Below are positions 11,842 to 30,015 of a DNA stretch of 32,000 nt, in pieces. The stretch's first letter is position 1. The number at the start of each line of letters is the position of its first letter. Made by a program: the position numbers and the translations under genes. Source of the stretch: Edaphobacter aggregans (GTDB lineage Bacteria > Acidobacteriota > Terriglobia > Terriglobales > Acidobacteriaceae); contig NZ_RSDW01000001.1 in NCBI RefSeq assembly GCF_003945235.1, forward strand, positions 1,290,001 to 1,322,000, in the 5' to 3' direction. Below the pieces are notes generated by a model, which saw nothing but the letters and a program-made list of their open reading frames with translations, had not been told where the DNA came from and made no database searches.

Positions 11842-11850
11842 GGGTAGCTG

Positions 11851-12123
11851 ATGTCACACAGTGAACGTGAAAAGCTGAAGTTGCAGCATCGACTCAAGAA
11901 GATCCGCGGCCAGTTCGATGCGATCGAACGCGCGCTGAGCGAAGAGGACGACTGCGCCAAGATTCTGATGCAACTGTCTGCGGTGCGTGGCGGAGTCAAC
12001 GGCCTGATGGCTGAAGTTCTGGAGGACCACCTGAGACTGCATCTCGCCGATAGGGATGGTAAGGGGATTGCTCCTGATCTTGCCGAAGACCTGGTTGAAC
12101 TGGTCCGGAGCTATCTGAAGTAA
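11851..12123 (+). CDS. CsoR/RcnR/FrmR-family (DUF156) metal-sensing transcriptional repressor, RcnR-type fingerprint
   Basis: The 90-aa MSHSEREKLKLQHRLKKIRGQFDAIERALSEEDDCAKILMQLSAVRGGVNGLMAEVLEDHLRLHL aligns colinearly with E. coli RcnR. The W-X-Y-Z positions are His3, Cys35, His60 and His64. Confidence 0.9.
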   Translation: MSHSEREKLKLQHRLKKIRGQFDAIERALSEEDDCAKILMQLSAVRGGVNGLMAEVLEDHLRLHLADRDGKGIAPDLAEDLVELVRSYLK

Positions 12124-12153
12124 CTCTGTCCCTCATTTGGAGAGACAAACATG

Positions 12154-12191
12154 CCATTGCCGCCGGCAGCTGGTCCAGACGGCGGCAATGG
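12154..12191. terminator. hairpin between convergent genes (possible bidirectional terminator)
   Basis: There is a perfect 12-bp stem, CCATTGCCGCCG (12154-12165) with CGGCGGCAATGG (12180-12191), and a 14-nt loop. It sits between the RcnR-like stop (12123) and the arcA stop (12208). No U-tract is present, so its status as an intrinsic terminator is uncertain. Confidence 0.45.
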
Positions 12192-12207
12192 ACATTCGCT
12201 AGCCTAA

Positions 12208-13461
12208 CTAGTAGTCGACTGCATCCCGGATGATCGGACAGGTCATGCAATGGCCGCCGCCACGTCCGCGGCCCAGTTCTGCGCCGACGATCGTGATCAC
12301 CTCTATGCCTTCCTTGCGTAGCAGTGTGTTTGTATAGACATTCCGGTCGTATGCGTAAACGACACCAGGCGATGCGCACACGAGGTTCGCGCCGCTGTCC
12401 CATTGGGTGCGTTCACGCTGGTAGGCGTTGCCACCGGTCTCGACCACGCGCAGCTTTTTCAAGCCCAGAGCTCCGGCAACCACTTCGACGAACGACCCCT
12501 TGTCTTTGGACAGCTCGACACCGCCAGGCTTGCTGCTGGGACGGTAGGAGAAAGCTTCGATTTTGTTCACGATATCTGGATACAGCAAAACGCAGTCACG
12601 ATCCGCAAACGTGAACACCGTGTCGAGATGCATGGCTGCTCTTAGTTTCGGCATCGCAGCCACGATGACTCGCTCGGCGGCGCCGTTCTCGAATAGGGCG
12701 GCTGCGACCTGACTGATCGCCTGACGCGACGTGCGCTCGCTCATACCGATCAGAACATTGCCCTTGCCAATGGGCATCACGTCGCCACCTTCGAATGTTG
12801 CCATCCCATGGTCTTTGGTTGGATCGCCCCACCACACCTTCACTTTACCGGCGAAATCTGGATGAAACTTGTAGATCGCAGTCGTCAGGATCGGTTCTTC
12901 GTGTCGCGCTGGCCAATACAGAGAATTGAGCGTAACACCGCCGTAGATCCAGCAGCTCGTGTCACGCGTGTATAGCGTGTTCGGCAGCGGAGGCAAGAGA
13001 TACTCGGTAACACCAGCCGCGTCCTTAACCAGCTTAAGCATTTCACCGCCGTGCGTCTCCGGGAAATCTTCCGTCGACAGACCGCCGAGCAGCGTTTCGG
13101 CAAGCTTGCGCGAATCCAAGCCTTCAAGGTAACTCCGGATTTCGTCTACCAGCCCCAGACCCACCTGGTCTGGTATGACCTGATTGTCGAGGATCCATTT
13201 TTTGGCTTCGGGAACAGCAACCGTTTCGGCTAGCAGATTGTGCATCTCCACCACGTCAACACCACGGTCGCGCATCTTGTTGATGAAGTCGAAGTGGTCG
13301 CGCTTGGCGTTGTCGACCCACAGTACGTCGTCGAAAAGCAGATCGTCGCAGTTGGATGGCGTTAGGCGAGTATGAGCCAAACCCGGCGCGCAGACCATCA
13401 CCTTGCGTAGTTTGCCGACCTCCGAGTGCACGCCGAACTTTACATCATTCGCATTCGTCAT
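12208..13461 (-). CDS. arcA: arginine deiminase
   Basis: The N-terminus [41 protein letters not shown] and the C-terminal catalytic-Cys segment [19 protein letters not shown] are canonical ADI signatures. 417 aa. Confidence 0.95.
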
Positions 13462-13496
13462 GATGAAACTCCTTAGATTGAATCAAGCCACTATGT

Positions 13497-14930
13497 TTAA
13501 ATTTGAATAAGTCCGCTTATGAGCCCGTAAACACCTACCAAGGCACCGATAATTGCAACGGCGAAGATGACGATATCCCCGGTCTTGGCGAAGACCTTGG
13601 CATTTTGTTCGCGTCGCGCCCAAATGTAGAGCACCGTCCCCGGCCCGTACAGTACAGCAGAGAGCAGGATGAACTTCGTGCCTCCGGCGAAAATCATGAA
13701 AGCCGTGTAGACCACCGCGACTAAAGCAATAATCAAATCCCGCTGGCGACCCTCTGGGTGCGTGTCATAGGATTCGCCGCGCTTCGAGATCTTGAACCCG
13801 TAAGCCGCAACGAACAGATACGGGATGAGCGACATCGCACTTGTGAGATTCAGCATCAGCGCGAATGCGTCTCTCGACCAGTACGTGCTGATAACAATAA
13901 GTTGGACGACAATGTTGGTCAGCCATAGAGCTGCCGCAGGAACGCGGTTCACATTTTCGGTAGCGAAAATCTTTGGCATGTCTTTGTTCTTTGCAGCCGC
14001 GAAGAGCACTTCGGCGCAGATCAGCGACCACGCCAGGTAGGCTCCGAGCACCGAAACGATAAGTCCGAGGCTGACGAAGACCGCGCCCCAATGCCCAACC
14101 ACGGCCTCCAACACAGCAGCCATCGACGGCTGACGCATGCCGGCGATATCAGCCCGGTGTAGCACGGCGTACGGAGTTAAGGTTACGAGGACCATCAGGC
14201 ACGTGACACCAATGAAGCCGGTGATTGTAGCCACACCGACATCGGAGCGCTTCTTTGCGTAGCGCGAGTACACGCTCGCTCCCTCAATCCCGATAAAAAC
14301 GAACACCGTGACCAGCATTGTGGCTTTGACTTGTTGGAACAGGTTTCCCGTAAGATCGCCGCCATAGAAGTTGCCGCGGAACATGTCGGCCTTGAATGCA
14401 AAGATCATGATCACGACGAATACCAGGATCGGAATAACCTTCGCGACCGTTACGACGCTGTTGATGAATGCCGCCTGTTGGACACCCTTCAAGATCATGA
14501 AATGAAAGAGCCATATCCCGATCGAGGCAACGAGAATTGCTACGACCGTATTGCCGTCTCCAAAAATCGGGAAAAACGCCCCCAGCGTCGCCTTGATCAG
14601 CACCCAGTACGAAACGTTGCCGATGCAACTACCGATCCAGTAGCCGAAGGCCGAGAGAAACCCGGGATAGTCGCCGAAGCCGGCCTTGGCATACGCGAAT
14701 ACGCCGGCATCCAGTTCGGGTTTGCGCTCGGCGAGCGATTGGAACACACGGGCCAGCATGTACATGCCGGTACCGGCAATAAGCCATGCGATGACAGCGC
14801 CGAATGGGCCGGTAGCGCCCGCAAAAGTGCGCGGGAGCGAGAAGATACCCGCCCCAACCATTCCGCCTACCACCATTGCTGTCAGTTGCATCAGGGACAT
14901 CTTCTGGTCAGTCTGGTCAGTCGAAGCCAT
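13497..14930 (-). CDS. arcD: APC-superfamily basic amino acid antiporter, arginine/ornithine antiporter ArcD type
   Basis: MVVGGMVGAGIFSLPRTFA...RKPELDAGVFAYAKAGFGDYPGFLSAFGYWI...FFPIFGDGN closely follows the ArcD pattern. It has about 12-13 TM segments and lies 35 nt upstream of arcA on the same strand. Confidence 0.9.
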   Translation of the reverse strand: MASTDQTDQKMSLMQLTAMVVGGMVGAGIFSLPRTFAGATGPFGAVIAWLIAGTGMYMLARVFQSLAERKPELDAGVFAYAKAGFGDYPGFLSAFGYWIGSCIGNVSYWVLIKATLGAFFPIFGDGNTVVAILVASIGIWLFHFMILKGVQQAAFINSVVTVAKVIPILVFVVIMIFAFKADMFRGNFYGGDLTGNLFQQVKATMLVTVFVFIGIEGASVYSRYAKKRSDVGVATITGFIGVTCLMVLVTLTPYAVLHRADIAGMRQPSMAAVLEAVVGHWGAVFVSLGLIVSVLGAYLAWSLICAEVLFAAAKNKDMPKIFATENVNRVPAAALWLTNIVVQLIVISTYWSRDAFALMLNLTSAMSLIPYLFVAAYGFKISKRGESYDTHPEGRQRDLIIALVAVVYTAFMIFAGGTKFILLSAVLYGPGTVLYIWARREQNAKVFAKTGDIVIFAVAIIGALVGVYGLISGLIQI

Positions 14931-15716: not shown

Positions 15717-17210
15717 ATGACTGATCCATCCATCACGTCACGCAGCGTCAAGGAACCGTCGTATGCGGATGCGATCATTCCCGCGGTGACCCTCATCGTC
15801 CTGATCGCAGGCGCTATCTTTCTGTTCGGGCTGGACGCTCTTGACGGTCCCGTGCAAGTCGCATTAATTTTCTGCGACATTCTCGTCGGCCTGATCATTA
15901 CCAAGAATGGGCATTCCTGGGACGACGTCGGTAGATCCGCGCAAGTCGCGATGGGGTCCGTCACCACGCCGTTTTTCATTTTGTTTGGCATTGGCGCACT
16001 GATTGGCACTTGGAACATGTCAGGCACGATCCCGACCATGGTTTACTACGGCATCCATTTGCTCCATCCCGCTTATTTTTATGTCGCGACGTTGGTTATC
16101 TGCTCTTTGATATCGCTCAGCATCGGGAGTTCCTGGACAACGGCAGGAACGATTGGTGTGGGTCTGGTGGGACTTGCAACGATGGTCGGCGTCTCCCCAG
16201 CTATCACCGCCGGAGCCGTCGTCTCTGGCTCCTACGTAGGTGACAAAATATCCCCACTCTCCGAGACAACCGTCCTGACAGCTCAGCTGGCGAAGGTCGA
16301 CGTCTTCACGCATATCCGCGCCATGCTTTGGACGACAGTGCCTTCCTTTCTCATTGCGTCTGTAGTGTTCACGTTTCTCAGCCTGCGGGAAGGCACCCTC
16401 GTCCACAACGTCGACACTGGGGGCGAACTACATAAGCTGAATCAGTTCTTTTGGATTACGCCGTGGAACCTGATCCCGCTGCTTTTTCTGCTGGTACTCT
16501 CGTTTCGCAAAGTACGCGCCTCAGTTGCAATCCTCAGTTCGGCGTTGCTCGCAGGCGTTATGGCGGCGATTCTGCAACCGCAAGCCATTTTGCACTTTGT
16601 CAACGATTCAACGCTTCCAGTCCTGCTCGTATACATCAAGGGCATTTGGATGGCGATGGCGAATGGCTATCATGTTAATACGGGCATCAAAGAGGTTGAC
16701 AGCCTCCTTTCACGCGGCGGCATGGCCAGCATGTTGGGGACGCTTTGGATCATCATCGGTGCGGTGACCTTTGGGACATTACTCGAAGAGTTTCAGCTGC
16801 TCGCCAAACTCATCAATCCCATACTCAGCCGCGCAAAAACCACAGGAGGTTTGATTGGAACAGTCGTTGGGACAGCGCTTGGGCTAAATATCATCGCCGC
16901 TGATCAATACATCGCACTGGTGTTACCCGTTCGGCTGTATCGTACCGAGTTCGAGAAGCGCGGCCTGAAAGCGCAAAACCTGTCACGAGCCTGTGCGGAT
17001 GCGGGAACTGTGACATCGCCTCTCGTGCCGTGGAACTCGTGTGGCGCTTACATGGCCGCCGCGCTCGGCGTAGCCACCCTGTCATATTTGCCGTTTGCCA
17101 TCTTCAACATCGCCGCCCCCCTCATGTCGCTCTTTTTGGGATTCACCGGCTTCAAGATCCAACGCATCCAGCCTTCCGAAGCGCAGGCAGAGACCACACC
17201 AACCGCCTAG
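15717..17210 (+). CDS. nhaC: NhaC-family (Na+/H+ antiporter-like, IT superfamily) membrane carrier
   Basis: 497 aa and polytopic. The segments FGIGALIGTWNMSGTIPTMVYYGI, LSIGSSWTTAGTIGVGLVG, SGSYVGDKISPLSETT and VPWNSCGAYMAAALGV are characteristic NhaC blocks. GGGAG lies upstream of the ATG. Confidence 0.88.
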   Translation: MTDPSITSRSVKEPSYADAIIPAVTLIVLIAGAIFLFGLDALDGPVQVALIFCDILVGLIITKNGHSWDDVGRSAQVAMGSVTTPFFILFGIGALIGTWNMSGTIPTMVYYGIHLLHPAYFYVATLVICSLISLSIGSSWTTAGTIGVGLVGLATMVGVSPAITAGAVVSGSYVGDKISPLSETTVLTAQLAKVDVFTHIRAMLWTTVPSFLIASVVFTFLSLREGTLVHNVDTGGELHKLNQFFWITPWNLIPLLFLLVLSFRKVRASVAILSSALLAGVMAAILQPQAILHFVNDSTLPVLLVYIKGIWMAMANGYHVNTGIKEVDSLLSRGGMASMLGTLWIIIGAVTFGTLLEEFQLLAKLINPILSRAKTTGGLIGTVVGTALGLNIIAADQYIALVLPVRLYRTEFEKRGLKAQNLSRACADAGTVTSPLVPWNSCGAYMAAALGVATLSYLPFAIFNIAAPLMSLFLGFTGFKIQRIQPSEAQAETTPTA

Positions 17211-17314
17211 CGAATCATCGCTGTACCTGTACGCCTTGTACGAATTGCTCTGCTGAGGAGCGCTGTTCGATCTCCCGGGCCATGTCTCTAGACCTAGAGG
17301 ACAGGAGGCTAACC

Positions 17315-18814
17315 ATGAAGATAGCGACGATAATGCCACTGATGTTTTTGCTGCTTTCGGGCACGACGCAAACGATAGCGCAGGAGACTCCCACACAGGA
17401 CGAGGTGGCGCGCAGATTACAGGGTCGGATGGATGAGTTGAGAACCCAAATGAACGAGATTCAGGGTGAACTGGATGCCTTGCATGGGGTGAATAATCTT
17501 GCCGAGGCCGTGAAGGACCTCAAGCCTGTGCCTCAGTCTTTACAGACGGGAGCTATTGAGAGGACGATGCCGCCGTTGCCGTCTGCGGTACAGCTAACGC
17601 CGGAACAGCAGCGGATGGCCGTAGGCAAGGAGACCGCTGCTTATGAGTCGTTTGCGGAGGAGTCGGAGCCTGTACCACGGCTTTACAATGCGCCGCTGGA
17701 GGCCACAATGCCGGGGTTCTTCGTGCTGCCAGGTACGCAGACCATGATGCGGATCAATGGGCTCATCAAAACCGACGTTATGTTTGACCCGCGGCCGGCT
17801 GGATTGGCGGACTCTTTTATCCCGTCGACGATACCGATTCCGCAGACAACGAGCACTAACAATTTCAACGCGAGTATTCGGGAAAGCCGATTCTCGGCAG
17901 ACTTCCGGATTCCTGTGAGCAATATAGGAATGGCTCGGACGTTTATTCAGTTCGATTTCTTCGGTGGTAATGGAGCTACTACGCCGCGGCTGCGCCATTT
18001 CTATGCGCAACTCCACAACGTTCTGGTGGGACAGACGAATACGGTCTTTATGGATCCAGATGCGTGGCCGGACATTATCGAGTTTCAGGGACCTACATCG
18101 GGACTCCTCGCTCGCATTCCGCAGGTTCGTTATACCTTCCCGCTGGGGAAAGGATTTAGTGCTGCTGTGTCAGTGGAGCAGCCTAGTACCGATGTCAGCT
18201 TCTCGGTGAATGGCTCATCGGCGGTTCCTATTACTCCTGCTCCTGATGGGGGCTTGCGGGTTCGGTATGAAGGCGATCGCGGGCATCTCTACTTCTCTTC
18301 GATCCTTCGTGAGCTGGCAGTGCATATGCCCGTTACCGGACAGCAGCAGTCTGTTTTGGGTTGGGGTTTGAACCTATCGAGTACCTGGCGTGTGGTGGGG
18401 AGAGACACTCTCAATTATCAGGTTGCTTATGGCAATGGAATCGCAAAATATACGGGTGATGGGTTCGGCCTTGGTCTGGATGCGCAACCCAAGTCGGACG
18501 TCGACCTTACGCTAAAAGCACTGCCAACCTTCGCTCCGTGGGTCAGTTATCAGCACAACTGGACCAGATCCGTCCGGTCGAGTGCGACCTTTGGATTGTT
18601 GCAGATTCAGAATACTGCGTTCCAGCCAGGCACCACATATCATAAGAGCACCTATTCGTCAGCCAATGTCATCTGGAATGCATATGGCAGCTTGTCTTTC
18701 GGTGCGGAGTTTATGTACGGGTGGGTGGAGCAGAAGAACCAGGAGAAGGCCAATGCGCCCCGTCTTCAGTTTTCTGGGAGATATACCTTCGTGAAGTTGC
18801 ATCCGAACGAATAA
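17315..18814 (+). CDS. outer-membrane porin, DcaP-like (N-terminal coiled coil plus beta-barrel)
   Basis: AGGAGG lies 7 nt before the ATG at 17315. Sec signal MKIATIMPLMFLLLSGTTQTIA|Q, then a coiled coil (VARRLQGRMDELRTQMNEIQGELDAL). The barrel shows alternating-pattern strands (MRINGLIKTDVMFD, IRESRFSADFRIP, TFIQFDFFG) with a terminal strand LQFSGRYTF. The longer ORF from 17030 overlaps nhaC and is rejected. Confidence 0.65.
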   Translation: MKIATIMPLMFLLLSGTTQTIAQETPTQDEVARRLQGRMDELRTQMNEIQGELDALHGVNNLAEAVKDLKPVPQSLQTGAIERTMPPLPSAVQLTPEQQRMAVGKETAAYESFAEESEPVPRLYNAPLEATMPGFFVLPGTQTMMRINGLIKTDVMFDPRPAGLADSFIPSTIPIPQTTSTNNFNASIRESRFSADFRIPVSNIGMARTFIQFDFFGGNGATTPRLRHFYAQLHNVLVGQTNTVFMDPDAWPDIIEFQGPTSGLLARIPQVRYTFPLGKGFSAAVSVEQPSTDVSFSVNGSSAVPITPAPDGGLRVRYEGDRGHLYFSSILRELAVHMPVTGQQQSVLGWGLNLSSTWRVVGRDTLNYQVAYGNGIAKYTGDGFGLGLDAQPKSDVDLTLKALPTFAPWVSYQHNWTRSVRSSATFGLLQIQNTAFQPGTTYHKSTYSSANVIWNAYGSLSFGAEFMYGWVEQKNQEKANAPRLQFSGRYTFVKLHPNE

Positions 18815-18943: not shown

Positions 18944-21151
18944 CTAGAACTTACGTAAGTTTGCGCGTATAGCTTCATTCCCAGGTTCGAGTTGTAGCGC
19001 ATGTTGCAAGTCGCGCCGCGCTGCAGAAATATCTCCAGCCCGCGCCTCGATCACCCCGAGGTCATTCCAATCGCCCGCGTTTCCGGGGGAGAGGGTAACA
19101 ACTATCTTCTGTTCCCGTACTGCATCGGATTCGCGTCCCAGTTGACTGTACATCTGCGCTAGAGCCCGATGTGGGTCCGCATCGGTCGGCGATAATCGTT
19201 GCCAAGACTGAAGATGCTCCAACGCCTTCTCTGGTGTTCCAATTCTGGCATATACAAGGGCTAACAGGCGCTGAGCATCCTTATCGTTCTGCACCGCAAT
19301 CGCCCTTAAAAGGAGGGACTCCGCCAATTGTAGGTTGCCATTTTCTACCTCGATCCTCGCCGATCCATACAAGGCATCGAAATTGTCCGGCGTGGCCTCG
19401 AGTACCTGATCGAACTCTCTCTTTGCCTCACCCGGACGACCGCTCGCCAGCAGTACATTCGCCAGTCCGTTTCGTGCCGCTGCGTCCTCCGGATGGGAGA
19501 GCGTGAGAGTACGAAACAGTTGCTCTGCCTCAGGCAGCGCGTCATGCCTCAGGTCGATCGACGCCAGATCGAATAGCGCATCCAAGTAGTTCGGATCTTT
19601 CGCCGCTGCAGCACGGTACTGCGCTTGGGCTGATTTCCAGTCGCCACTCGCTTCCATTGCAGAGCCTAGAGAAGTCAGCGTACGTACGTCGTCTGGGTGT
19701 CTTTCCAACGAGCGCCGATATAGCTCCTCGGCCCGTGCTCCATTACCCTTCATCATCGCCAGCGAAGCCAGGTTATACAGCGCAATATCGTCATGTGCAT
19801 TTTTGCGGAGTCGATCTTCCATCCACACGCGCTCTAACTCCATCTGAGGATCCACACCCACAACTTGATTCTCGGGACGCGGCACTACCTGCAGCCAAAG
19901 GTGACCCATTTCATCTACAGACCGGTTCCCTGCCCTTACTCTGACAGGTGGAGAATTCGGATTCCGTACATTATTTGCCGAGTTATCGTAGGTGTAGCGC
20001 ATATGAACCACGCTTCCACGTGGCAATGAGACCGGCTTCGCAAAACGGTAGACGGATTGTCTATTGATGTCCCAGTCCTTTATTAGGATCAACCACCGGC
20101 GTTCTCCATTCGGTAAAACAGCCCAACCTTCCATTCTCTTACCGAGATAATGCGCGTGAGGATAGATCCCCAGCACGTCGACCGAGACCGGTAGCTTGAG
20201 TTCGTCTTCAATAACAAAAGCGGCGCCCGGAGGAATGTCCAGAGCCGCATCGTGCTCCAATTGCAGCAGCATAGGATGTTCTGTTGCCGGCTTGTCAGTG
20301 AAGTAAAGTCCAATCTGAGCGCGAACGTGCTCTATCTTGCCGGTTGGCTTTAAGTGCATGTTCAACACGAGATCGTTTCCTTCATCCAAGCGCCATGGCA
20401 ACCCTTCAGGCTCGATCAGCGCCGTCGAGTCTGGCTTCCAGAAGAGAAAATGGCTGTCTGGATCGAAGCTCTCGCCCGAGTCCACCAGGATATCCATTCC
20501 TGGTATGCCCTTCTGCCAATCATTGGGATGCGCCCGCCGCAAGGAAGCCGTTCGGTCCAGAATCACGTTTGCATGATGTACAACTTGAGGAGCTCCTGGC
20601 TTAATCTCCATGGCTCGCACCCATCGAGTCCCCTTCTGCGGCACCGGCAGAACGAAATTCTCGAAGAGATCCGTTCCACCCGCAGGGACTTCTATCGGCG
20701 CTGCCATCTCCAGCACAAGATCCGGACGTCCCAATACCCAATCACTTTTGTACACGGGTGGGGTGGGGGTGCTGCCGTCTCCCTCCGGCATCCCTGCTTC
20801 GACCCAGGCCTTCACCAACTCAATATCCTCATTCGTCAGGCGCCGCTCGCCTTCAAATGAACCGTATCCTGGCTCGGGCAGCCACGGAGGCATGTAGCGA
20901 CTCGCTGTTACGGTCTTTATCAAGCCACCCCAGCGTTTCGCATCCTGGTAGGTCATCAGCGCAAATGGACCGGATCCACCAACGTGGTGGCAACTCGTGC
21001 AGTTTTTGTAGACCAATGGAGCAATCTGCTGCCGCCATGTCACTGGCTCCGCGGACGCGTATACCGTCTCCCACCCTTTATGCGATGCGGCCAGCACTAT
21101 GCCTGACATTGCCACGGCTGCAGCTACATGCACCCTGACCGTCGCGTTCAT
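18944..21151 (-). CDS. exported fusion protein: cytochrome-c-type CxxCH module + PHM/DBH-like copper monooxygenase-fold region + C-terminal TPR array
   Basis: N-terminal hydrophobic signal/anchor. IAPLVYKNCTSCHHVGGSGPFALMTY...SRYMPPW carries a CxxCH at residues 51-55. Copper-site-like motifs are QVVHHANV (His192/193), LVLNMHLKP (His266), IYPHAHYLGKRMEGW (HxHxxGK, His332/334) and SVDEMGHLW (Met415). Their order and spacing resemble the PHM CuH (H,H,H) and CuM (H,H,M) ligands. Residues from about 445 onward are TPR repeats. Confidence 0.7.
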   Translation of the reverse strand: MNATVRVHVAAAVAMSGIVLAASHKGWETVYASAEPVTWRQQIAPLVYKNCTSCHHVGGSGPFALMTYQDAKRWGGLIKTVTASRYMPPWLPEPGYGSFEGERRLTNEDIELVKAWVEAGMPEGDGSTPTPPVYKSDWVLGRPDLVLEMAAPIEVPAGGTDLFENFVLPVPQKGTRWVRAMEIKPGAPQVVHHANVILDRTASLRRAHPNDWQKGIPGMDILVDSGESFDPDSHFLFWKPDSTALIEPEGLPWRLDEGNDLVLNMHLKPTGKIEHVRAQIGLYFTDKPATEHPMLLQLEHDAALDIPPGAAFVIEDELKLPVSVDVLGIYPHAHYLGKRMEGWAVLPNGERRWLILIKDWDINRQSVYRFAKPVSLPRGSVVHMRYTYDNSANNVRNPNSPPVRVRAGNRSVDEMGHLWLQVVPRPENQVVGVDPQMELERVWMEDRLRKNAHDDIALYNLASLAMMKGNGARAEELYRRSLERHPDDVRTLTSLGSAMEASGDWKSAQAQYRAAAAKDPNYLDALFDLASIDLRHDALPEAEQLFRTLTLSHPEDAAARNGLANVLLASGRPGEAKREFDQVLEATPDNFDALYGSARIEVENGNLQLAESLLLRAIAVQNDKDAQRLLALVYARIGTPEKALEHLQSWQRLSPTDADPHRALAQMYSQLGRESDAVREQKIVVTLSPGNAGDWNDLGVIEARAGDISAARRDLQHALQLEPGNEAIRANLRKF

Positions 21152-21820: not shown

Positions 21821-23536
21821 CTAGTAGCGTGATGGATGGCCCTTGCCTTCGGTCAGTTCGAAAATGAGGTCGGGAGTTGAAGGCGGATCGAAGAGTTCGG
21901 TGAGGCCGTTGGGCCAGCGGACCTGAATGTCCTTGAGCTGGGTCTCGGTGCCAAGGCCAAAGTGGAGGCGGAGATCGCTCGAAGAGTTGTAGCTAGAACC
22001 GCTGCGAACCTCATCGACCCAGAGACGGGTGGCGCTATGGAGGGTGACCCTGGCTCCGATGGCATCTCGGTTGGAGGTGGTTCCGACGAGGTGCAGGCCG
22101 AGCCAGTGGTTCTGGCTCTTGGCGAGATTAATGAGAAGCGTCGGATCGTCGCTGAGATTGTTGACAACAGCTTCGATACGGCCATCGTTAAAGAGGTCGG
22201 CAATTGCCAGGCCACGGCCGGAGTGGCGTTCTGCTAAGGCGGGGCCGGAGGTTTTACTGATGTCCCTGAATTTGCCGTTGCCGAGGTTGTAGTAGAGGAA
22301 GCGGGGTTCGCGGTAGAAGGAGCCTAGCTTGGCCGAGTCAACCTCAGGGTAGACGTGACCATTGACCACGAGAAGATCGGGCCAGCCATTGTTATCGACA
22401 TCAGCGAACATAACACCCCAGCCAAGGGCGTCGGTGTTGATGCCGAGACCCGCTTGGAAGGTTGCATCGGTGAAGGTGCCGTCGCCGTTGGCATGGTAGA
22501 GGGTGGAGGTATCGTCCGAGAAGTTAGTTTTGAAGAGGTCGGGGTAGCCGTCGCCATCGTAGTCGGCGGAGGCGGAGCCCATGCCGGCCTGCTCGCGACC
22601 ATCTTCGTTGTAAGCCACGCCAGAGTCGGCGGCGACGTCAGTGAAGGTACCGTCGTGGTTGTTGCGATAGAGAATGGAGGGGGTGGAGTCGCAGGCAACG
22701 TAGATGTCGGGCCAGCCGTCGTCGTTATAGTCGATAGTGGTGACTGAGAAGCAGTAATGACCGTTGGTCCGCTCGAATCCACTGGATTTGCTGACGTCTT
22801 CAAATTTGCCATCACCGAGATTGTGATAAATCACGTTCGGCGCGCTCGGAAGGCCGCGTGGGCCACACATGACCGGGGCACCTTTCCACATACAACTGAC
22901 GCCAGCGCCCGGTTTAGGAGTTGTCGCGAGATCGAAGTGCACGTAGTTGGCGACGACGAGATCGAGTTTGCCGTCGCGGTCATAGTCGACGAAGGCGCAG
23001 CCGGTGCCCCACTCTTTGCCGGTACCGGCGACTCCTGCCTGCTCAGCTACCTCTTTGAATGTGCCGTTGCCTTGGTTGTGGAAGAGCCGATTCTTGCCAT
23101 AGCCGGTGACGTAAAGGTCGTCGAAGCCGTCGTTGTCATAATCACCGACGCAGACTCCCTGGCCCCAGCCGATCGAAGCCAAGCCTGCACGGGCAGTGAC
23201 GTCGGTGAACGTACCATCGTGGTTGTTGTGGAAGAGGTGACTGGTTGGTTTTTCTTTTGGATTGGCGGAGTCGCCGGGCAGCGTGGTCCCGTTGACGAGA
23301 AAGATGTCGGGCCAGCCGTCGCGATCGTAGTCGACGATTGCCACGCCGGAGCCTGTGGCTTCGATGATGTAACGCTTGGAATCGACACTTCCATTGACGT
23401 TGCGGACAGTGATACCCGCTTTGGAGGCTACATCGACGAACCAAGCGGGCGGTGGGTGATCAATAGTGGGTGGATAGGGTTGTTGTGCGAAGACGTGCGA
23501 TAGAAGAAGAAGCAAGAGCATCGTGAAGGCGCGCAT
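21821..23536 (-). CDS. CRTAC1-family protein (FG-GAP/VCBS beta-propeller repeats + ASPIC/UnbV C-terminal domain), Sec signal
   Basis: Signal MRAFTMLLLLLLSHVFA|Q. Repeated units D(Y/F)DxDGxxD(I/L)(F/Y)V.N and (L/F)(F/Y)xNNxDGTFTDV. The C-terminus NRDAIGARVTLHSATRLWVDEVRSGSSYNSSSDLRLHFGLG...VRWPNG is the ASPIC/UnbV signature. Confidence 0.85.
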   Translation of the reverse strand: MRAFTMLLLLLLSHVFAQQPYPPTIDHPPPAWFVDVASKAGITVRNVNGSVDSKRYIIEATGSGVAIVDYDRDGWPDIFLVNGTTLPGDSANPKEKPTSHLFHNNHDGTFTDVTARAGLASIGWGQGVCVGDYDNDGFDDLYVTGYGKNRLFHNQGNGTFKEVAEQAGVAGTGKEWGTGCAFVDYDRDGKLDLVVANYVHFDLATTPKPGAGVSCMWKGAPVMCGPRGLPSAPNVIYHNLGDGKFEDVSKSSGFERTNGHYCFSVTTIDYNDDGWPDIYVACDSTPSILYRNNHDGTFTDVAADSGVAYNEDGREQAGMGSASADYDGDGYPDLFKTNFSDDTSTLYHANGDGTFTDATFQAGLGINTDALGWGVMFADVDNNGWPDLLVVNGHVYPEVDSAKLGSFYREPRFLYYNLGNGKFRDISKTSGPALAERHSGRGLAIADLFNDGRIEAVVNNLSDDPTLLINLAKSQNHWLGLHLVGTTSNRDAIGARVTLHSATRLWVDEVRSGSSYNSSSDLRLHFGLGTETQLKDIQVRWPNGLTELFDPPSTPDLIFELTEGKGHPSRY

Positions 23537-23538
23537 GA

Positions 23539-25413
23539 CTAGCCTTTACTCGATGTTTGCTGAGGACCCATGGCTACTGTCTTAAGAATCTTGCCGCCTT
23601 CCTGAATGACGTAGAGGTGATTGGGGGCGAGTGCGGGAATCTTGTCGACGGTACCAGAGGGCCAACGAATCTCGACGTCGGCCTTAGTAGCGTGGTCGAG
23701 GCCAAAGTGGAGTCGGAGGTCGTTCTGTGAGAAGTAACTGCCGCCGCTACGAACCTCATCGATCTGGACGAAAGGTTTGGCATCGGGAGATGGTTGCGTG
23801 GTAACTGATATTCGTGAGCCGATACCGGTGCGATTGGACTTGGTTCCTATAGTGCGGATCTTGATCCAATTGCGAGCGGGGCCGGCGTCGGGAGAGGGAT
23901 CGCAGCGAAGGAGTTGGGGAAGGCTATTGATGCAGTTGACGACCACATCGAGGTCACCATCGTTGTCATAGTCTCCGAAGGCCGTACCTCGCGCGGGAGC
24001 GGGCGTGGTGATGCCGGGGCCGGCTAGTGCGGTGACCTCTTCAAACTGGCCGTTGCGGAGATTGCGGTAGAGGTACTTGTGCTGCGCGTAGGGGGCATCG
24101 ACGTTGGTGCCTTCAACCTCAGGGTAGACGTGGCCGTTGGACATGAGAATGTCGAGCCAGCCGTCGTTGTCCATGTCGAAGAAACCCACGCCCCAACCAA
24201 GGAAGCGAGTATTGACACCGAGGCCGGAGAGGTAGGTGTGATCGTCAAAGTTGCCGTTGCCAAGATTGAGATAGAGGGAGTCGGTGTCGCCGGCAAAGTT
24301 GGTCTTGACGATGTCGAGGAGGCCATCGCGGTTGAAGTCACCGATTGAGACGCCCATGCCGGCCTGGGGTTTGCCATCGGGGGAATAAGCAATGCCGGCC
24401 TCAATGGCGACATCTTTGAAGGTACCGTCCTTTTGATTTTGATAGAACGTTGCGGCGGTGGAGTCATTGGCGACGTAGATGTCGGGCCAACCGTCGTTGT
24501 CGAGATCGGCGACTGAGACAGAGAGGGCGTACGTCCCAATGGTGTCCCACATGCCGCTCTTCTGTGAAACGTCGGTGAAGGTACCGTCGCCGTTGTTGTG
24601 GTAGAGGATGTTCTTCCCACCTTGTAAACCGGGAGGACCGCAGGCTACCTGAATGCCCTTGTAAGCACAGCCTGCGGCTTCGGGAAGTGGTGCGGTCTTA
24701 ATGTCGAAGTCGATGTAGTTAGCGACGAAGAGATCGAGATTGCCGTCACGGTCGTAGTCGAGGAAGGCGCAGCCGGAGTTCCAGCGGGTTTTCGATTGGA
24801 GGAGGCCAGCTTTGGCAGTGACGTCGGTGAAGGTACCGTCGCCGTTGTTGCGGTAGAGGACGTTCTGACCGTAGTAACTGATGAAGAGATCGTTCCAACC
24901 GTCGTTGTTGTAGTCGCCGACACAGCAGCCCTGTCCCCATCCGCTGCGTGCAAGACCGGCTTTAGCAGTAACGTCGGTGAAAGTACCATCCCGATTGTTC
25001 TTGAAGAGATGCGAGACGGGTTCCTGGTCCTTGGCAAAGCCTTCGAGACGGGAACCGTTGACGAGAAAGATATCGACCCAGTCATCGTGGTCATAGTCGA
25101 AGAAAGCTACTCCGCAGCCTGTGGTTTCGAGCAGGTATCTGTTCTTGTGCTCACCCCCATAGATAGTTTTGGCATTGAGGCCGGACTGGCGGGCGACGTC
25201 GATGAAGCTGATGCCAAGAGGAGTGCCAGCGACAGGCGAGGGAGCACCTTTGGGCGCTGGCCGAGGCTTGGCGTCGTAGGTGGGGCGTGAGCCGACCTGT
25301 GGAGTTGCTTGTTGTGTACTTGCCGGAACTGCCAAGGCGAGCACGTCATCGAGCGAAAGAACGAGAGATGTGCAGGAGAGAGAGGTGAGGAATGTACGAC
25401 GAGACCAGGTCAA
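23539..25413 (-). CDS. CRTAC1-family protein (FG-GAP/VCBS repeats + ASPIC/UnbV domain) with twin-arginine (Tat) signal
   Basis: TTG start with GGGGGAG 8 nt upstream. The N-terminus MTWSRRTFLTSLSCTSLVLSL...LALA|V fits S-R-R-x-F-L. The repeat architecture matches the downstream paralogue. The C-terminus NRTGIGSRISVTT...VQIDEVRSGGSYFSQNDLRLHFGLG...IRWPSG. Only 2 nt separate its stop from the next ATG. Confidence 0.85.
   Translation of the reverse strand: MTWSRRTFLTSLSCTSLVLSLDDVLALAVPASTQQATPQVGSRPTYDAKPRPAPKGAPSPVAGTPLGISFIDVARQSGLNAKTIYGGEHKNRYLLETTGCGVAFFDYDHDDWVDIFLVNGSRLEGFAKDQEPVSHLFKNNRDGTFTDVTAKAGLARSGWGQGCCVGDYNNDGWNDLFISYYGQNVLYRNNGDGTFTDVTAKAGLLQSKTRWNSGCAFLDYDRDGNLDLFVANYIDFDIKTAPLPEAAGCAYKGIQVACGPPGLQGGKNILYHNNGDGTFTDVSQKSGMWDTIGTYALSVSVADLDNDGWPDIYVANDSTAATFYQNQKDGTFKDVAIEAGIAYSPDGKPQAGMGVSIGDFNRDGLLDIVKTNFAGDTDSLYLNLGNGNFDDHTYLSGLGVNTRFLGWGVGFFDMDNDGWLDILMSNGHVYPEVEGTNVDAPYAQHKYLYRNLRNGQFEEVTALAGPGITTPAPARGTAFGDYDNDGDLDVVVNCINSLPQLLRCDPSPDAGPARNWIKIRTIGTKSNRTGIGSRISVTTQPSPDAKPFVQIDEVRSGGSYFSQNDLRLHFGLDHATKADVEIRWPSGTVDKIPALAPNHLYVIQEGGKILKTVAMGPQQTSSKG
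24569..24860. repeat. intragenic direct repeat: two 40-bp copies (24569-24608 and 24821-24860) differing at one base
   Basis: The copies are ACGTCGGTGAAGGTACCGTCGCCGTTGTTG(T/C)GGTAGAGGA, 252 bp apart and in frame. On the coding strand they encode LY(H/R)NNGDGTFTDV of consecutive FG-GAP/VCBS units. More diverged copies lie near 24970, 23200 and 22630. Confidence 0.9.
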
Positions 25414-25530
25414 ATGGGCGCTCCCCCTCTATAGGCCGAATGCTATATCAGTCGGCTGCGACCGCCGGCCACTGGATAGCAGTGCAGTGAGTATAGAGAA
25501 GGGACCTGCAGGCAGGCAATGAGGCACTCT

Positions 25531-27360
25531 TTACTGGCGGGAAGGGGAGTTAGCTCCTGAAGTCGATTGGGCTTGCGTGAGCTTTTGAGCTTGTTGACGC
25601 TCAAGGGCGGCATCGGCGCTCCGGCCTTGCAGAGCAAATGCATCGGCGAGGGCAGAGTGAGCCTCGGCGTAATTTGGGTCGGCGGCGACAGCTGCCTGGA
25701 GTTGCGCGGTGGCTTCGGAGAGTTGGCCACGCTTGAGTAAGAGGCGTCCGCTGTCGAGTGCAAAGTTTGCGCGCTGGCGACTGACGGCGACGCGGCTGAG
25801 GTCGGCGGCTTTTTTGCGCTCGGCTGCTGCGCCAGCGGTATCGCCCTGGCGTATAAGAATAGCTGCAAGAGTGATATGAGGGCTTGGCTGATCGGGCATC
25901 AGCTCAATTGCGTGACGTAGCGCAGCGATAGCTTTTTCAGGTTCGTTGTTCTGCTTGTAGACATTGCCGAGCATGGCCCAGGCGTCGCCGTGATCTGGCC
26001 TGAGGGTTGTGGCTTTCTCAAGCTCGACCTGGGATTCAGAGAAGCGTCCGAGCTGCATGAACAAAACGCCGAGAGTGTAGGGAGGATCGGGAAGAACGGG
26101 GTCGAGTTTTGCTGCTTGCTCGAACTCCTGAATAGCGGCGGGCACATCGTCCTTTAGTTTGAAGGCGAGGCCGAGATCGTAATGGAGTTGGGGATTATCA
26201 GGTTCCACGACGAGACCTGACCGAAATTGCTCGATGGCATGATCCAGATCGGCTTGCTGAAGATAGGCGACTCCGAGATTTTCGCGGAGTGTTCCGCTGT
26301 TGGGCGTAAGTTTGAGCGCGGTGAGATAGAGAGGGATTGCGCGCTTGGCATCCCCTAGCTGCACGAGATCTAGGCCGAGATTGATGAGGGCGGCGGAGTC
26401 TTGCGGACGGGCAGCAACAACCTGCTCGAAGAGGGGTAAAGCTTCCCGGGCGCTACCGCTGGCCTGAAGGGTTAGGGCGAGTTCATATTTGGTGTCTATA
26501 CGAGACGGATCAAGTTGAAGAGCATGACGAAGAATTGCGGCAGATTGCACATCCTGATTAGTGTCACGGAGAGCGCGGATAAGTTGGAGAATGTAGTCGA
26601 TGTTGTCCTTAGCGAGGGCGTTCGCCTGTGTAAGCTCGGTTACGGCGTTGGCGGGATCGTGAATAGTGAGGAAGACAGAACCAAGGTGGTAGTGCGCAGC
26701 AGGAAGATTCGGATCGAGCACGATAGCCTGGCGGAACTGCGATGCTGCATCATCGTAGCGTTCCTGCTGGGCGAGGACAGTGCCGAGTGTGTCGTGAAGC
26801 GTTGCGTCATTGGGTTGGGCGGCGAGAGCCTTTTCGAGCTGGCTTTGCGCGGCCGCGGGTTGTGATGTGGCAACGAGCGCGGTGGCGTATGCAATGGCCG
26901 CATTGGGTGTGAGAATCTGGTCTGCCTGGTTTATCAGGTCGAACATCGTTACGGATTTGGTATAAGCGTGAAGCTGCTCGTAGGCGACGGCGAGGTTCAG
27001 TGTCGCGTTGGTGTCGTGCGGATCGAGTTCGCGGGCTTGTTCCAGCTCTGCCGCGGCTGCATGGGGATTTCCTTCGGCTAGTAGAACCGTTCCAAAGGCG
27101 GTGTGCCCGGCCGCTACATTGGGAGTAAGATGTACGACCTTTGCAAACTGCGCGTGGGCGGTAGGCAGATCGTTCTGCTGATAGGCGGCGGACCCTGCGC
27201 GAAAGGCTGCATCCGCTGCTTTGAGATTGGCAGTTGGGGCCGGGCTCGACTTGGCTGAGGGAGTAGCGTTCGTTTGTGCCGAAGTCTCGACGTACGCCAG
27301 CGACAGGATAGCTGTGAAAAAGACGGGCAGGAGCGACGAGTGTGCAGGGTGAAGGCGCAT
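25531..27360 (-). CDS. exported tetratricopeptide-repeat (TPR) protein
   Basis: Nearly the whole protein is made of 34-residue TPR-like units (e.g. AHYHLGSVFLTIHDPANAVTELTQANALAKDN, AWAMLGNVYKQNNEPEKAIAALRHAIELMPDQ). The ATG at 27360 gives a good signal peptide, MRLHPAHSSLLPVFFTAILSLAYVETSA|Q. The ORF could instead start at TTG 27387. Confidence 0.85.
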   Translation of the reverse strand: MRLHPAHSSLLPVFFTAILSLAYVETSAQTNATPSAKSSPAPTANLKAADAAFRAGSAAYQQNDLPTAHAQFAKVVHLTPNVAAGHTAFGTVLLAEGNPHAAAAELEQARELDPHDTNATLNLAVAYEQLHAYTKSVTMFDLINQADQILTPNAAIAYATALVATSQPAAAQSQLEKALAAQPNDATLHDTLGTVLAQQERYDDAASQFRQAIVLDPNLPAAHYHLGSVFLTIHDPANAVTELTQANALAKDNIDYILQLIRALRDTNQDVQSAAILRHALQLDPSRIDTKYELALTLQASGSAREALPLFEQVVAARPQDSAALINLGLDLVQLGDAKRAIPLYLTALKLTPNSGTLRENLGVAYLQQADLDHAIEQFRSGLVVEPDNPQLHYDLGLAFKLKDDVPAAIQEFEQAAKLDPVLPDPPYTLGVLFMQLGRFSESQVELEKATTLRPDHGDAWAMLGNVYKQNNEPEKAIAALRHAIELMPDQPSPHITLAAILIRQGDTAGAAAERKKAADLSRVAVSRQRANFALDSGRLLLKRGQLSEATAQLQAAVAADPNYAEAHSALADAFALQGRSADAALERQQAQKLTQAQSTSGANSPSRQ

Positions 27361-27479
27361 TATCTCAGAGGTGATTTTAGCGAGCAATGGGTGTTTAGGG
27401 AATTTTGCAGATGGAATCGTCTCGTCTGTGAAGAGCCGGGAGGGTAGACTGGGGAGTCTTTGATGGCGATGGAGGCAAT

Positions 27480-29999
27480 ATGCGCCTTGTCTTGGTTGGG
27501 ACAGCGATGCTTTGCGGAATGGCTGCCGCGCAGACGACCGGTCTGCAGCCTGTAAACTCTTTTCCGCTAAAAGAGGATGGACTAGTTATTCGCCGGCATG
27601 TGGAGTCGGGTATGCCTTTTACGGTGGCGGGCACTCAGGGCGTCATCCTAGGTCAGCAGGAGGGTATATTCGAGGCGTGGACGCTGCCTGTGAAGCTGCT
27701 TAGTCATTTCAGCATCAAGGCCGAGGTGGAGGGATATCCCGTACCGATTGAGCTGAAGGATCACGCTCGTGAGATTGAAGTGTTTCCTAATCGCACGGTG
27801 ATCACGTATTCACATATCGCCTTTACGCTGCGACAGATTATGTTTGCGCCGGATGAGATGGAGCCTGGCACGGGTGCTGTAGTGCTGTTTCAAGTGGACT
27901 CGGCGCGGCCGGTTGACCTGACGTTCAGCTTCAACCCTGAGATGCGTCCAATGTGGCCACAGGAGGATCAGGGGATACCGTCGGCAGAGTGGATTAAGCT
28001 GGATGCGAGCGGGTTCTACGTGCTCCATACAGACTTTCCAAATCTTGCCGGTGCTGTGGCGATGCCCACGTCGCAGCCAGGCATTATGGCCCCCTATCAG
28101 GAGAAGCCGCAATTTCATCCGTTGGAACTGAAGCTCCACTACGACCAAAAACGGGATAAAGACCGTTACTTCCCGCTGCTTATGGCAGTGGGGACTACGA
28201 CCGAAACCGCTACGAATGTAGCATTGCAAGCGAAGTTGGAGCGGCTGGGAGCAATAGTAGAGCAAACATATTCAGCTCATGCGGCGCGATACCTCCGCAT
28301 GATGAAAGAGTTGACTGCGATTCGGACCCCTGATGCGGATTTGAATAACGCGTTCTCCTGGGCGTCAATTTCCATTGAGCAGTTGAGAGCGAAGGTGCAG
28401 CCCACTGGCGAGGTTGGGCTGGTGGCTGGATATTTTTCGTCCGGCGATTCGGCACGGCCTGGATTTGGCTGGTTCTTCGGGCGGGATGCGCTATATACGC
28501 TCTATGCGGTGAATGACTTTGGCGACTTCAGGCTAAGCCGCGAAGCAATGGAATTTCTGATACGGCGGCAGAGGGACGACGGGAAGATGATGCATGAGTA
28601 CTCGCAGACAGCGGCGAATGTGGATTGGAGGGCACTGCCGTATATGTATGCTGCGGCTGACGCGACGCCGTTATTTCTGACCGCGATGCTGGACTACGTG
28701 CGGAGCAGTGGGGACGCGGACTTCTTAAGGCGCCACCGCGAGTCGGTTGAAAAGGCATGGCATTTTGAGATAACGCATGACTCGGACGGTGACGGCATCT
28801 ACGACAATGCCCAGGGAACCGGCTGGGTTGAGAGCTGGCCACCGGGGATGCCACATCAGGAGATCTACCTGGCGCTCTTGGACCAGCAGGCGTCCACTGC
28901 CATGGCAAAGTTGGCTAGCTTACTGAACGACAAGGCTACAGCAGAATCAGCCGCGAAACGAGCGGATGAACTGAAGAAGAAGATCGAGAGGGAATATTAC
29001 GATTCCACCCGCGATGCTTATGCGTTCAGCCGCAATAGAGATGGGACGCTTGACCATACGGCGACGGTCTATCCGATGATCGCATGGTGGAATGGAGGAG
29101 ACGGTCTGACCCATGCAGATGCAAGTTTTCAACGATGGGCTTCACACGATTTCTCAACCGATTGGGGCCTGCGCGACATCGCAGAGAGCGACCCTCTCTT
29201 CGATCCGATCAGTTATCACCAGGGATCAGTGTGGCCGTTGTTTACAGGATGGGCTGCTGTGGCGCAGTATCGCGCGGGACATCCGCTCACTGGGTATGCT
29301 CACCTGATGCAGAACGCCGATCAGACAACGATGCAGGATCTTGGGGCAGTTACAGAATTACTGTCCGGAGCTTTCTTTCAGCCGTTCGGACGAAGCACAA
29401 GTCATCAGCTCTGGTCCTCTGCTATGGTTGTCGTTCCGGCGATACGAGGCTTGTTTGGGATCGATGTGGATGCAGTATCGGAAAGTGTTTGGCTCAATCC
29501 ACATCTTCCGGCTAATTGGGACAACGCTGAGGTGCAACGGCTGCATGTGGGGGAAGCAGTGTGTGCTCTGGAGTACAAGCGCGAAGGGCAGAGACTGGTT
29601 GTACACATCAAGACTGTGTCCGGCAAAAATGTCAGGCTGACGACCTCGGTGAAGGAATCGCAGGTGACAGCAGATGGATCCTCTATCATTTTTGCGCTGC
29701 CGCCGGTCGAAGTTGCATTACCGCATCGGCTGCCGTTGCAGGGGGCGCGAACGGCTCAGATGAAGGTGCTCAGCGAGACGAGGGATTCACACTCGTTGAA
29801 GCTTGAGTTGGAGGCTGCCGCAGGATCTATTGTTGAATTGAAGGTTCGCCGCAATGGTCCGAAGCTGAATCTTCGCATCGAAGGCGGCACTCTGACTGCT
29901 GCAGGAGATACTGATGCGCAGAGCAATATCGATCAAGTAGTAGTAAGATTTCCGGACGGATCAGGATATCAGCATCGCGCTCTAACACTGAGTTGGTAA
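27480..29999 (+). CDS. exported six-hairpin (alpha/alpha)6 glycoside hydrolase, glycogen-debranching-enzyme C-domain-like (amylo-alpha-1,6-glucosidase family)
   Basis: GGAGG precedes the ATG. Signal MRLVLVGTAMLCGMAAA|Q. GFGWFFGRDALYTLYAV, ...DATPLFLTAMLDYV... and ISYHQGSVWPLFTGW resemble the GDE_C/COG3408 motifs FGRD and YHNGxVWP. There is a C-terminal beta-rich tail. Confidence 0.6.
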   Translation: MRLVLVGTAMLCGMAAAQTTGLQPVNSFPLKEDGLVIRRHVESGMPFTVAGTQGVILGQQEGIFEAWTLPVKLLSHFSIKAEVEGYPVPIELKDHAREIEVFPNRTVITYSHIAFTLRQIMFAPDEMEPGTGAVVLFQVDSARPVDLTFSFNPEMRPMWPQEDQGIPSAEWIKLDASGFYVLHTDFPNLAGAVAMPTSQPGIMAPYQEKPQFHPLELKLHYDQKRDKDRYFPLLMAVGTTTETATNVALQAKLERLGAIVEQTYSAHAARYLRMMKELTAIRTPDADLNNAFSWASISIEQLRAKVQPTGEVGLVAGYFSSGDSARPGFGWFFGRDALYTLYAVNDFGDFRLSREAMEFLIRRQRDDGKMMHEYSQTAANVDWRALPYMYAAADATPLFLTAMLDYVRSSGDADFLRRHRESVEKAWHFEITHDSDGDGIYDNAQGTGWVESWPPGMPHQEIYLALLDQQASTAMAKLASLLNDKATAESAAKRADELKKKIEREYYDSTRDAYAFSRNRDGTLDHTATVYPMIAWWNGGDGLTHADASFQRWASHDFSTDWGLRDIAESDPLFDPISYHQGSVWPLFTGWAAVAQYRAGHPLTGYAHLMQNADQTTMQDLGAVTELLSGAFFQPFGRSTSHQLWSSAMVVVPAIRGLFGIDVDAVSESVWLNPHLPANWDNAEVQRLHVGEAVCALEYKREGQRLVVHIKTVSGKNVRLTTSVKESQVTADGSSIIFALPPVEVALPHRLPLQGARTAQMKVLSETRDSHSLKLELEAAAGSIVELKVRRNGPKLNLRIEGGTLTAAGDTDAQSNIDQVVVRFPDGSGYQHRALTLSW

Positions 30000-30015
30000 C
30001 TGACAGACGTAGTCA

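Follow-up and report, generated by a model that had tools for sequence, protein, structure and literature searches.

A predicted periplasmic protein of Edaphobacter aggregans combines a c-type cytochrome domain with a PHM/DBH-like, putatively dicopper core

A stretch of 32,000 nucleotides from the soil bacterium Edaphobacter aggregans (RefSeq assembly GCF_003945235.1, contig NZ_RSDW01000001.1, positions 1,290,001 to 1,322,000 of the forward strand), called the window here, contains a gene for a 735-residue protein. A signal-like N-terminus is followed in it by a monoheme cytochrome c domain, a core of two domains and, as the fourth part, approximately eight tetratricopeptide (TPR) repeats. The core resembles the catalytic region of peptidylglycine alpha-hydroxylating monooxygenase (PHM) and dopamine beta-hydroxylase (DBH). 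Enzymes of this family (Pfam PF01082 and PF03712) carry two copper ions and hydroxylate C-H bonds with O2, using ascorbate as the reductant, and their ligand side chains form two copper sites, CuH and CuM, that lie about 11 Å apart. The characterised members are eukaryotic and ascorbate-dependent, and they serve peptide amidation and catecholamine synthesis. Directly upstream of the gene under study (the target gene, its product being the query) lies a gene for a predicted secreted thioredoxin-fold protein, referred to below as the partner. The positions of all features are listed in Table 1.

The target gene had been described in a first-pass annotation made from the letters of the window alone, which proposed this order of parts and read the middle region as PHM/DBH-like. 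The open reading frame had exactly the bounds, strand and length given there, and the motifs lay where they had been placed (CTSCH at residues 51–55, YMPPW at 86–90, VVHHANV at 190–196, NMH at 264–266, PHAHYLGK at 331–338 and DEM at 413–415), with inter-motif spacings of 73, 66 and 81 residues. The PHM motifs given there for comparison (HHM, HTHxLGK and DEMC) and the PHM spacings of roughly 64, 70 and 70 residues agreed with the rat PHM sequence 4e4z_A, which has VHHM, HTHHLGK and SDEMC at spacings of 64, 70 and 70. Rat PHM residues are given here in the numbering of peptidylglycine alpha-amidating monooxygenase (PAM), obtained by adding 44 to the 4e4z_A chain residue, an offset taken from the 5wm0_A row. 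The claimed architecture was confirmed, and its interpretation was supported by the analyses presented below.

Table 1 Features of the target gene and its partner gene, in positions of the window.
Feature	Position	Strand	Evidence
Whole gene: cytochrome c / PHM-like dicopper core / TPR protein, 735 residues	18944..21151	minus	Open reading frame list
N-terminal signal-like segment, residues 1–33, hydrophobic stretch VAAAVAMSGIVLAA	21053..21151	minus	Sequence reading
Monoheme cytochrome c domain, residues 34–125	20777..21052	minus	Pfam matches, PDB profile matches
Heme attachment motif C51-T-S-C54-H55	20987..21001	minus	100% conserved, 142 diverse homologs
Y-M87-P-P-W, candidate distal Met heme ligand	20882..20896	minus	Conservation
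First beta-sandwich, residues ~140–290, equivalent of the PHM CuH domain	20282..20734	minus	AlphaFold2, Foldseek, hhalign
H192-H193, aligned to PHM CuH ligands H107-H108	20573..20578	minus	hhalign
H266, aligned to PHM CuH ligand H172	20354..20356	minus	hhalign
Second beta-sandwich, residues ~291–432, equivalent of the PHM CuM (catalytic) domain	19856..20281	minus	Cu2_monoox_C, Foldseek, hhalign
H332-A-H334 in PHAHYLGK, aligned to PHM CuM H242/H244 (HTHHLGK)	20150..20158	minus	hhalign
D413-E414-M415, aligned to PHM D312-E313-M314 (CuM Met ligand)	19907..19915	minus	hhalign
C-terminal TPR array, residues 445–735, ~8 repeats, 17–18 helices	18947..19819	minus	Pfam, AlphaFold2, PDB TPR matches
Partner: predicted secreted thioredoxin-fold protein, 201 residues	21148..21753	minus	AhpC-TSA match, synteny

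Searches with the full-length profile and fold were flooded by TPR proteins, and the core was therefore excised for searching. The core-only AlphaFold2 model (residues 126–432) reached a mean predicted local distance difference test score (pLDDT) of 87.4 and a predicted template modelling score of 0.82; the pLDDT of the full-length model was 84. When the core-only model was searched against the PDB with Foldseek, the top 31 matches were all DBH or PHM structures, 29 of them being PHM entries, with E-values from 2.4e-13 to 6e-9, template modelling (TM) scores of 0.51–0.66 and approximately 300 aligned columns. The best match was DBH (4zel; E 2.4e-13, TM 0.66 normalised to the query). The next matches were viral capsid jelly-rolls (E ~1e-5, TM ~0.2), separated from these entries by a gap in E-value of about three orders of magnitude. 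PHM and DBH were likewise the best PDB matches outside the TPR proteins for the full-length model (E ~5e-10 to 2e-9, ~310 columns). The two-domain PHM/DBH fold proposed for the middle region is thus borne out by the modelled structure.

Profile comparison was conducted against rat PHM with hhalign. A family profile of 26 sequences aligned with a probability of 93.4% (E 2.6e-7), and a profile of 142 sequences with a probability of 95.4% (E 1.9e-8, score 62.6) over 248 columns spanning both domains, whereas 20 shuffled PHM controls gave scores of at most 18 and probabilities of at most 0.5%. The six candidate ligands paired in register with those of PHM, H192, H193 and H266 with the CuH set and H332, H334 and M415 with the CuM set, and the HxHxLGK and DEM motifs, the latter as (S/T)xDEM, are common to both proteins. 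The ligand assignment of the first-pass annotation is therefore supported at the level of aligned sequence. The Pfam model Cu2_monoox_C matched residues 323–394 of the query at 17.7 bits (cutoff 23) and recurred at this location in 22 of 26 diverse cores; its sub-threshold scores were 17.7–19.6 bits. The fold and the ligand register of the core are demonstrated computationally by these models and alignments.

Conservation was assessed in an alignment of 142 diverse full-core homologs, approximately 41–62% identical to the query. C51, C54, H55, M87 and H193 were conserved in every sequence, H266 and H334 in 99.3%, H192, H332 and M415 in 98.6%, and E414 in 99%; the L-G-K residues flanking H332 and H334 were also conserved. 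Other histidines, namely H56, H234 and H417, were variable. Since the ligand residues are near-invariant while these histidines vary, selection acts on exactly the ten proposed cofactor residues. Several invariant motifs are specific to the family (W.LG.PDL, W.PG, W.F.WQ..Y and DNS..N..NP..PP..V..G....DEM).

The heme domain was characterised by scanning 20 diverse copies of residues 34–128 against Pfam, one at a time. Cytochrome_CBB3 matched all 20, Haem_bd 19 and Cytochrom_C 13. The query heme domain alone just passed the Cytochrom_C cutoff (21.4 versus 21.3 bits), which together with the family-wide matches upholds the c-type cytochrome module of the first-pass annotation. With Cytochrome_CBB3 it scored 22.7 bits alone and 17.8 bits within the full-length query, both under the cutoff of 27; the corresponding score of the relative P0122 was 34.1 bits. 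The suggestion that the module might be a planctomycete-type cytochrome c found no support in Pfam, since with E ≤ 1 as the limit none of the 20 copies matched PSCyt1 (PF07635). The closest PDB profile matches were PccH (4rlr) and the heme domain of hydrazine synthase alpha. Around M87, P88 was conserved in 100% and P89 and W90 in 99% of the 142 homologs, and M87 is the probable axial heme ligand. In the AlphaFold2 model and in the hhalign alignment the heme domain stands directly N-terminal to the CuH-like domain. This adjoining position fits an electron path from the heme to CuH and on to CuM, the direction in which electrons would be expected to flow. The 735-residue protein is predicted to be occupied by both metal and heme.

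Export of the protein to the periplasm is predicted because it has a hydrophobic N-terminal segment and because c-type heme attachment needs export. Residues 4–21 form a helix of low pLDDT in the AlphaFold2 model, and the N-terminus is variable among the aligned homologs.

The TPR repeats following the core, also noted in the first-pass annotation, were readily recovered over residues ~445–735. Pfam TPR families matched with E-values of 1e-14 to 8e-30 (best TPR_19, 8e-30), and the AlphaFold2 superhelix had a pLDDT above 90. What stays constant from member to member is the cytochrome c domain together with the PHM-like core. A TPR-like tail was present in 128 of 150 representatives, the others having EF-hands or no tail. 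Members P0168 (468 residues) and P0187 (422 residues) are nearly tail-less, and P0122 consists of two tandem cytochrome c–PHM-like units with EF-hands. The TPR array is an optional accessory and may serve as a docking or substrate-recruitment arm. Named TPR equivalogs (PrsT, MamA, PilW, LapB and TadD-like) were considered and rejected, as all scored far under their NCBIfam cutoffs; PrsT was the best at 94.9 versus 312.2 bits, and the LapB models reached 16–31 bits versus cutoffs of 363–474.

The partner gene was absent from the first-pass annotation. Its product matched the Pfam models AhpC-TSA (31.8 bits versus a cutoff of 26) and Redoxin (27.8 versus 26.6), and its stop codon overlaps the start codon of the target gene by 4 nucleotides, as ATGA. 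Of 80 related genome loci, 73 carry a partner homolog immediately upstream and on the same strand; in at least two of the exceptions (L027 and L066) the target homolog lies at the very start of the available DNA. The partner signature was also detected as a separate gene adjoining a marine member (L084) and near a tandem member (L086), and fused to the enzyme itself, N-terminally in P0161 and P0139 and C-terminally in P0255/P0280 and P0259.

Three partner residues are essentially invariant: C54 (in DCPxSN), H95 and C186 (in GC.I). The active site reads C54-P-I-S, so the second cysteine of a CxxC motif is replaced. The PDB profile matches were led by the uncharacterised structure 2ywi (E 3.5e-22), with 3u5r and 2cvb next and then ResA (1.9e-9). 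The partner is alike to these structures and to ResA/TlpA-type oxidoreductases in the thioredoxin fold and in the first cysteine of CxxC. With 2YWI it also has the C-terminal GC motif in common, whereas its invariant H95 is not present in 2YWI; the ResA/TlpA-type enzymes have a CxxC active site where the partner has CPxS. The sequence gave no support to a Sco-like copper chaperone role, as no Sco match was obtained at E ≤ 0.01 and the nearest characterised proteins are the ResA-type oxidoreductases. Candidate roles are a thiol reductant, a peroxide protector, or a helper in cofactor maturation or substrate handling.

Among known systems, PHM (the catalytic core of PAM; PDB 1PHM, 1OPM, 1SDW and 4E4Z) has the same two-domain beta-sandwich fold as the query core, with HH...H and HxH...M ligands in register at 14–18% sequence identity. 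The position of PHM Q170 is mostly Gln in the family and Asn in the query. PHM is a eukaryotic enzyme of the secretory pathway that uses ascorbate and is followed C-terminally by the PAL lyase, whereas the query is bacterial and predicted periplasmic, with an N-terminal cytochrome c domain, a C-terminal TPR array and a thioredoxin-fold partner. The best structural match of the query core, DBH (4ZEL), belongs with tyramine beta-monooxygenase (TBH) and MOXD1. DBH and the query both carry an extra domain ahead of the CuH domain and further C-terminal domains after the core; the N-terminal domain of DBH is a DOMON domain, whereas that of the query is a covalent c-type heme domain, and DBH, which depends on ascorbate, is a glycoprotein linked by disulfides. 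A conceptual likeness is found in lytic polysaccharide monooxygenase (LPMO), a copper oxygenase to which cellobiose dehydrogenase supplies electrons through its cytochrome domain. Electron transfer mediated by cytochromes is the subject of a review (PMC6472588). In the LPMO system too a heme domain acts as a dedicated one-electron donor to a copper oxygenase; that system, however, has an unrelated fold, a mononuclear histidine-brace copper and a heme b on a separate enzyme, while in the query the heme c is on the same polypeptide as the PHM-type two-copper core.

These data are best accounted for, with a probability of roughly 65%, if the protein is a periplasmic PHM/DBH-type non-coupled dicopper monooxygenase that draws its two electrons from its own c-type heme instead of ascorbate, acts on a substrate other than peptidyl-glycine and works with a thioredoxin-fold accessory. 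Ascorbate is generally absent from bacteria, and the heme is proposed as the electron source for this reason. The fused heme would take single electrons from periplasmic respiratory carriers and pass them to the adjacent CuH domain (H192, H193 and H266), which would relay them over the interdomain cleft to CuM (H332, H334 and M415). For the characterised enzymes the mechanism, above all how electrons cover the long range from CuH to CuM, is still debated (PMC12164859). O2 would be activated at CuM and a C-H bond of the bound substrate hydroxylated. The substrate is probably a peptide, a protein or a secondary metabolite and may be recruited in part by the C-terminal module. The translationally coupled thioredoxin-fold protein would act as an obligate accessory, either as thiol reductant or protector or in cofactor or substrate handling.

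If this reading is true, the protein would provide a tractable, disulfide-free and non-glycosylated model in which the heme would allow electron delivery to be started and monitored by optical means. It would also represent a class of periplasmic enzymes, new among those that oxidise C-H bonds, that is widespread in Acidobacteriota and found in Planctomycetota as well; the tailoring of natural products and the modification of proteins are possible roles. It would, moreover, provide evidence on how the animal enzymes arose in evolution.

Several observations weigh against the monooxygenase reading. None of the 26 cores passed the Cu2_monoox_C cutoff, and the N-domain model Cu2_monooxygen matched just one of them (E 0.088). 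In the profile-HMM check suggested in the first-pass annotation, the TPR models matched strongly, Cu2_monoox_C stayed sub-threshold and Cu2_monooxygen gave no match in the query. Searches of PDB sequences with single-sequence phmmer and with the core profile in hmmsearch found no PHM. The sub-threshold Pfam scores and the missing N-domain match indicate a homology so remote as to lie beyond HMM-to-sequence searches. TM scores of 0.5–0.66 with root-mean-square deviations of 5–6 Å versus PHM and DBH likewise signify marked divergence or another domain orientation. The heme region had low pLDDT in the full-length model, and two distant members that were sampled, P0187 and P0239, had no partner gene nearby. 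PHM has several disulfides, and these are absent from the query, in which C51 and C54 are the sole cysteines among 735 residues. Finally, the carboxylate-binding triad of PHM (R240/N316/Y318) is replaced in the query by Y330/H417/W419; in the 142 homologs these positions hold Tyr in 101, Asp or Glu in 88 and Trp in 68, respectively. Glycine-extended peptides, which the first-pass annotation had put forward for activity screens, are for this reason unlikely substrates, judging from the residues present.

The most serious competing explanation, which we regard as unlikely though deserving of attention, retains the fold and the metals and differs in chemistry: the protein would be an oxidase or an electron-transfer device and not a C-H hydroxylase. 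It might oxidise thiols of the partner or of a client, turn over peroxide or superoxide, or deliver electrons from a substrate to the respiratory chain. Thiol chemistry is suggested by the thioredoxin-fold partner with its Cys/His/Cys set, which is tightly linked to the enzyme and in some members fused to it. A VKOR-thioredoxin gene lies near one distant member; the substrate-binding residues of PHM are not kept, and a heme can carry electrons either way. This explanation has to contend with the retention at ~99% of the CuH His3 and CuM His2Met ligands together with the DEM and HxHxLGK motifs, a set that in PHM, DBH and TBH is dedicated to O2 activation for hydroxylation, and with the lack of any cysteine near the copper sites.

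It is far less credible that the protein is a non-catalytic TPR scaffold or a plain electron-carrier cytochrome in which the beta-sandwich region is a binding module. The public names of family members (TadD, LapB, TPR repeat protein and cytochrome c family) would suit such a protein, TPR arrays are usually protein-interaction scaffolds, and the PHM/PNGase F-type jelly-roll is found in non-redox proteins too. Those names, however, stem only from TPR and CxxCH matches, NCBIfam having no model for the core, and the TPR equivalog scores were far under their cutoffs. Moreover, it is the cytochrome c domain and the core that are constant and the TPR array that is dispensable, and six near-invariant ligand residues at ~40% identity would not be expected of a binding module. 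That the PHM likeness reflects chance His/Met motifs in an unrelated beta-rich protein, as the failed single-sequence and HMM-to-sequence searches of the PDB and the sub-threshold Pfam scores might suggest, is effectively refuted by a core structure search specific to PHM and DBH with an E-value gap of orders of magnitude to the next fold, by the 248-column two-domain profile alignment against shuffled controls at ≤0.5%, and by the recurrence of one Pfam model match at one location in 22 of 26 members.

Homologs of the non-TPR part (residues 1–451) numbered at least 7,990 in a 90%-clustered protein database. The top 120 were 65–97% identical to the query, and the few with an organism name were Acidobacteriaceae, for example Granulicella. 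An exhaustive search of 50%-identity cluster representatives returned 14,313 at E ≤ 1e-3 and 2,523 at E ≤ 1e-30. Planctomycetota entries occurred among the named members of the family, and public names, where given, were TadD, LapB, "TPR repeat protein", "mono/diheme cytochrome c family" and "cytochrome c". No NCBIfam model matched the non-TPR part of the query and all Pfam matches to the core were sub-threshold, so that the core is covered by no curated model in either resource; structure-based resources such as InterPro, Gene3D or SUPERFAMILY may already assign a PHM/PNGase F-like domain to some members. The annotation of thousands of database entries labelled TadD, LapB, TPR or cytochrome c could be corrected on the basis of the present assignment. 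Close homologs (46–52% identity) were observed amid the acidobacterial matches in bins of other taxa, Rhodanobacteraceae (L049) and Heliobacteriaceae (L078); these could be mis-binned metagenome contigs or cases of horizontal transfer.

The family is a very large and apparently uncharacterised bacterial one. No bacterial member and no cytochrome c fusion was described in the full-text literature covered, most subscription journals being outside that coverage, and within the same scope the statement in the first-pass annotation that no bacterial enzyme of such architecture has been characterised is sustained. A 2025 review of PHM, DBM and BURP enzymes mentions no prokaryotic homologs (PMC12164859). 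The catalytic fold and the ligand set are known from the eukaryotic enzymes; what is new is the kingdom, the electron-supply module, the partner and a different substrate pocket. A bolder proposal, which we hold tentatively and at somewhat less than even odds, is that the protein is the founding example of a large unrecognised bacterial class that is independent of ascorbate, reduced by a fused heme and obligatorily dependent on its partner, and that hydroxylates periplasmic peptides, proteins or non-ribosomal peptides. Such a class might be the stock from which the eukaryotic neuropeptide and catecholamine enzymes arose.

Upstream of the partner gene in the window, positions 21821–27387 on the minus strand hold two paralogous FG-GAP/ASPIC-UnbV (CRTAC1-like) genes, of 571 and 624 residues, and a 618-residue TPR gene. 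Together with the partner and target genes these possibly form a five-gene operon here. A functional link of the target to the FG-GAP/ASPIC-UnbV and 618-residue TPR genes was considered and found weak across the 80 loci, as they occurred within 8 kb in approximately 25, with variable position and strand; matches to the 618-residue TPR protein inside the target are probably cross-matches to the target's own TPR array. On the other side, a DcaP/Porin_2-like outer-membrane protein gene lies at 17030–18814 on the plus strand. Its listed GTG start overlaps the end of an NhaC-type antiporter gene (15717–17210), and translation probably begins further in, at MKIATIMPLMFLLL near residue 106 of the open reading frame as listed. 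Links to the porin, NhaC and glycoside hydrolase neighbours were rejected, as these were found at 0–6 of the 80 loci (a glycoside hydrolase adjoins the target in 6) and are not conserved. The rest of the window (5861–14930 and 27480–31866) holds ordinary genes, for resistance-nodulation-division efflux components (AcrB-like, HlyD-like and an outer-membrane factor), an arginine deiminase, an alpha-amylase, an MGH1-like glycoside hydrolase and an amino-acid permease. In other genomes no such gene is conserved beside the target. A scan for promoters and terminators gave counts within shuffle expectation.

Three related loci have neighbours of note. A Logan contig (SRR21362870; L086:1–13195) carries three cytochrome c–PHM-like units, one in a 584-residue gene and two in tandem in P0122, with EF-hand tails and not TPR repeats; the units lie at 3228–4982 and 5001–8195 and the partner gene at 2582–3205. 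They are flanked on both sides by Condensation, AMP-binding, PP-binding, Thioesterase and Sulfotransferase genes, and their position with the partner inside this non-ribosomal peptide synthetase cluster is a hint of peptide natural-product tailoring by some members. At the marine locus L084, P0220 and its Redoxin partner are followed, two genes downstream, by a VKOR-Thioredoxin_4 fusion (disulfide-bond formation; 9898–11364), and the edge of the locus holds a sulfatase gene; the fusion could have a bearing on thiol chemistry or could be a coincidence. The eukaryotic PAL lyase, which comes after PHM, is a beta-propeller of the NHL type. A 1029-residue protein beside P0280 (L087:1812–4901) gave DUF7133 and HEAT matches along with faint NHL and faint cytochrome c matches.

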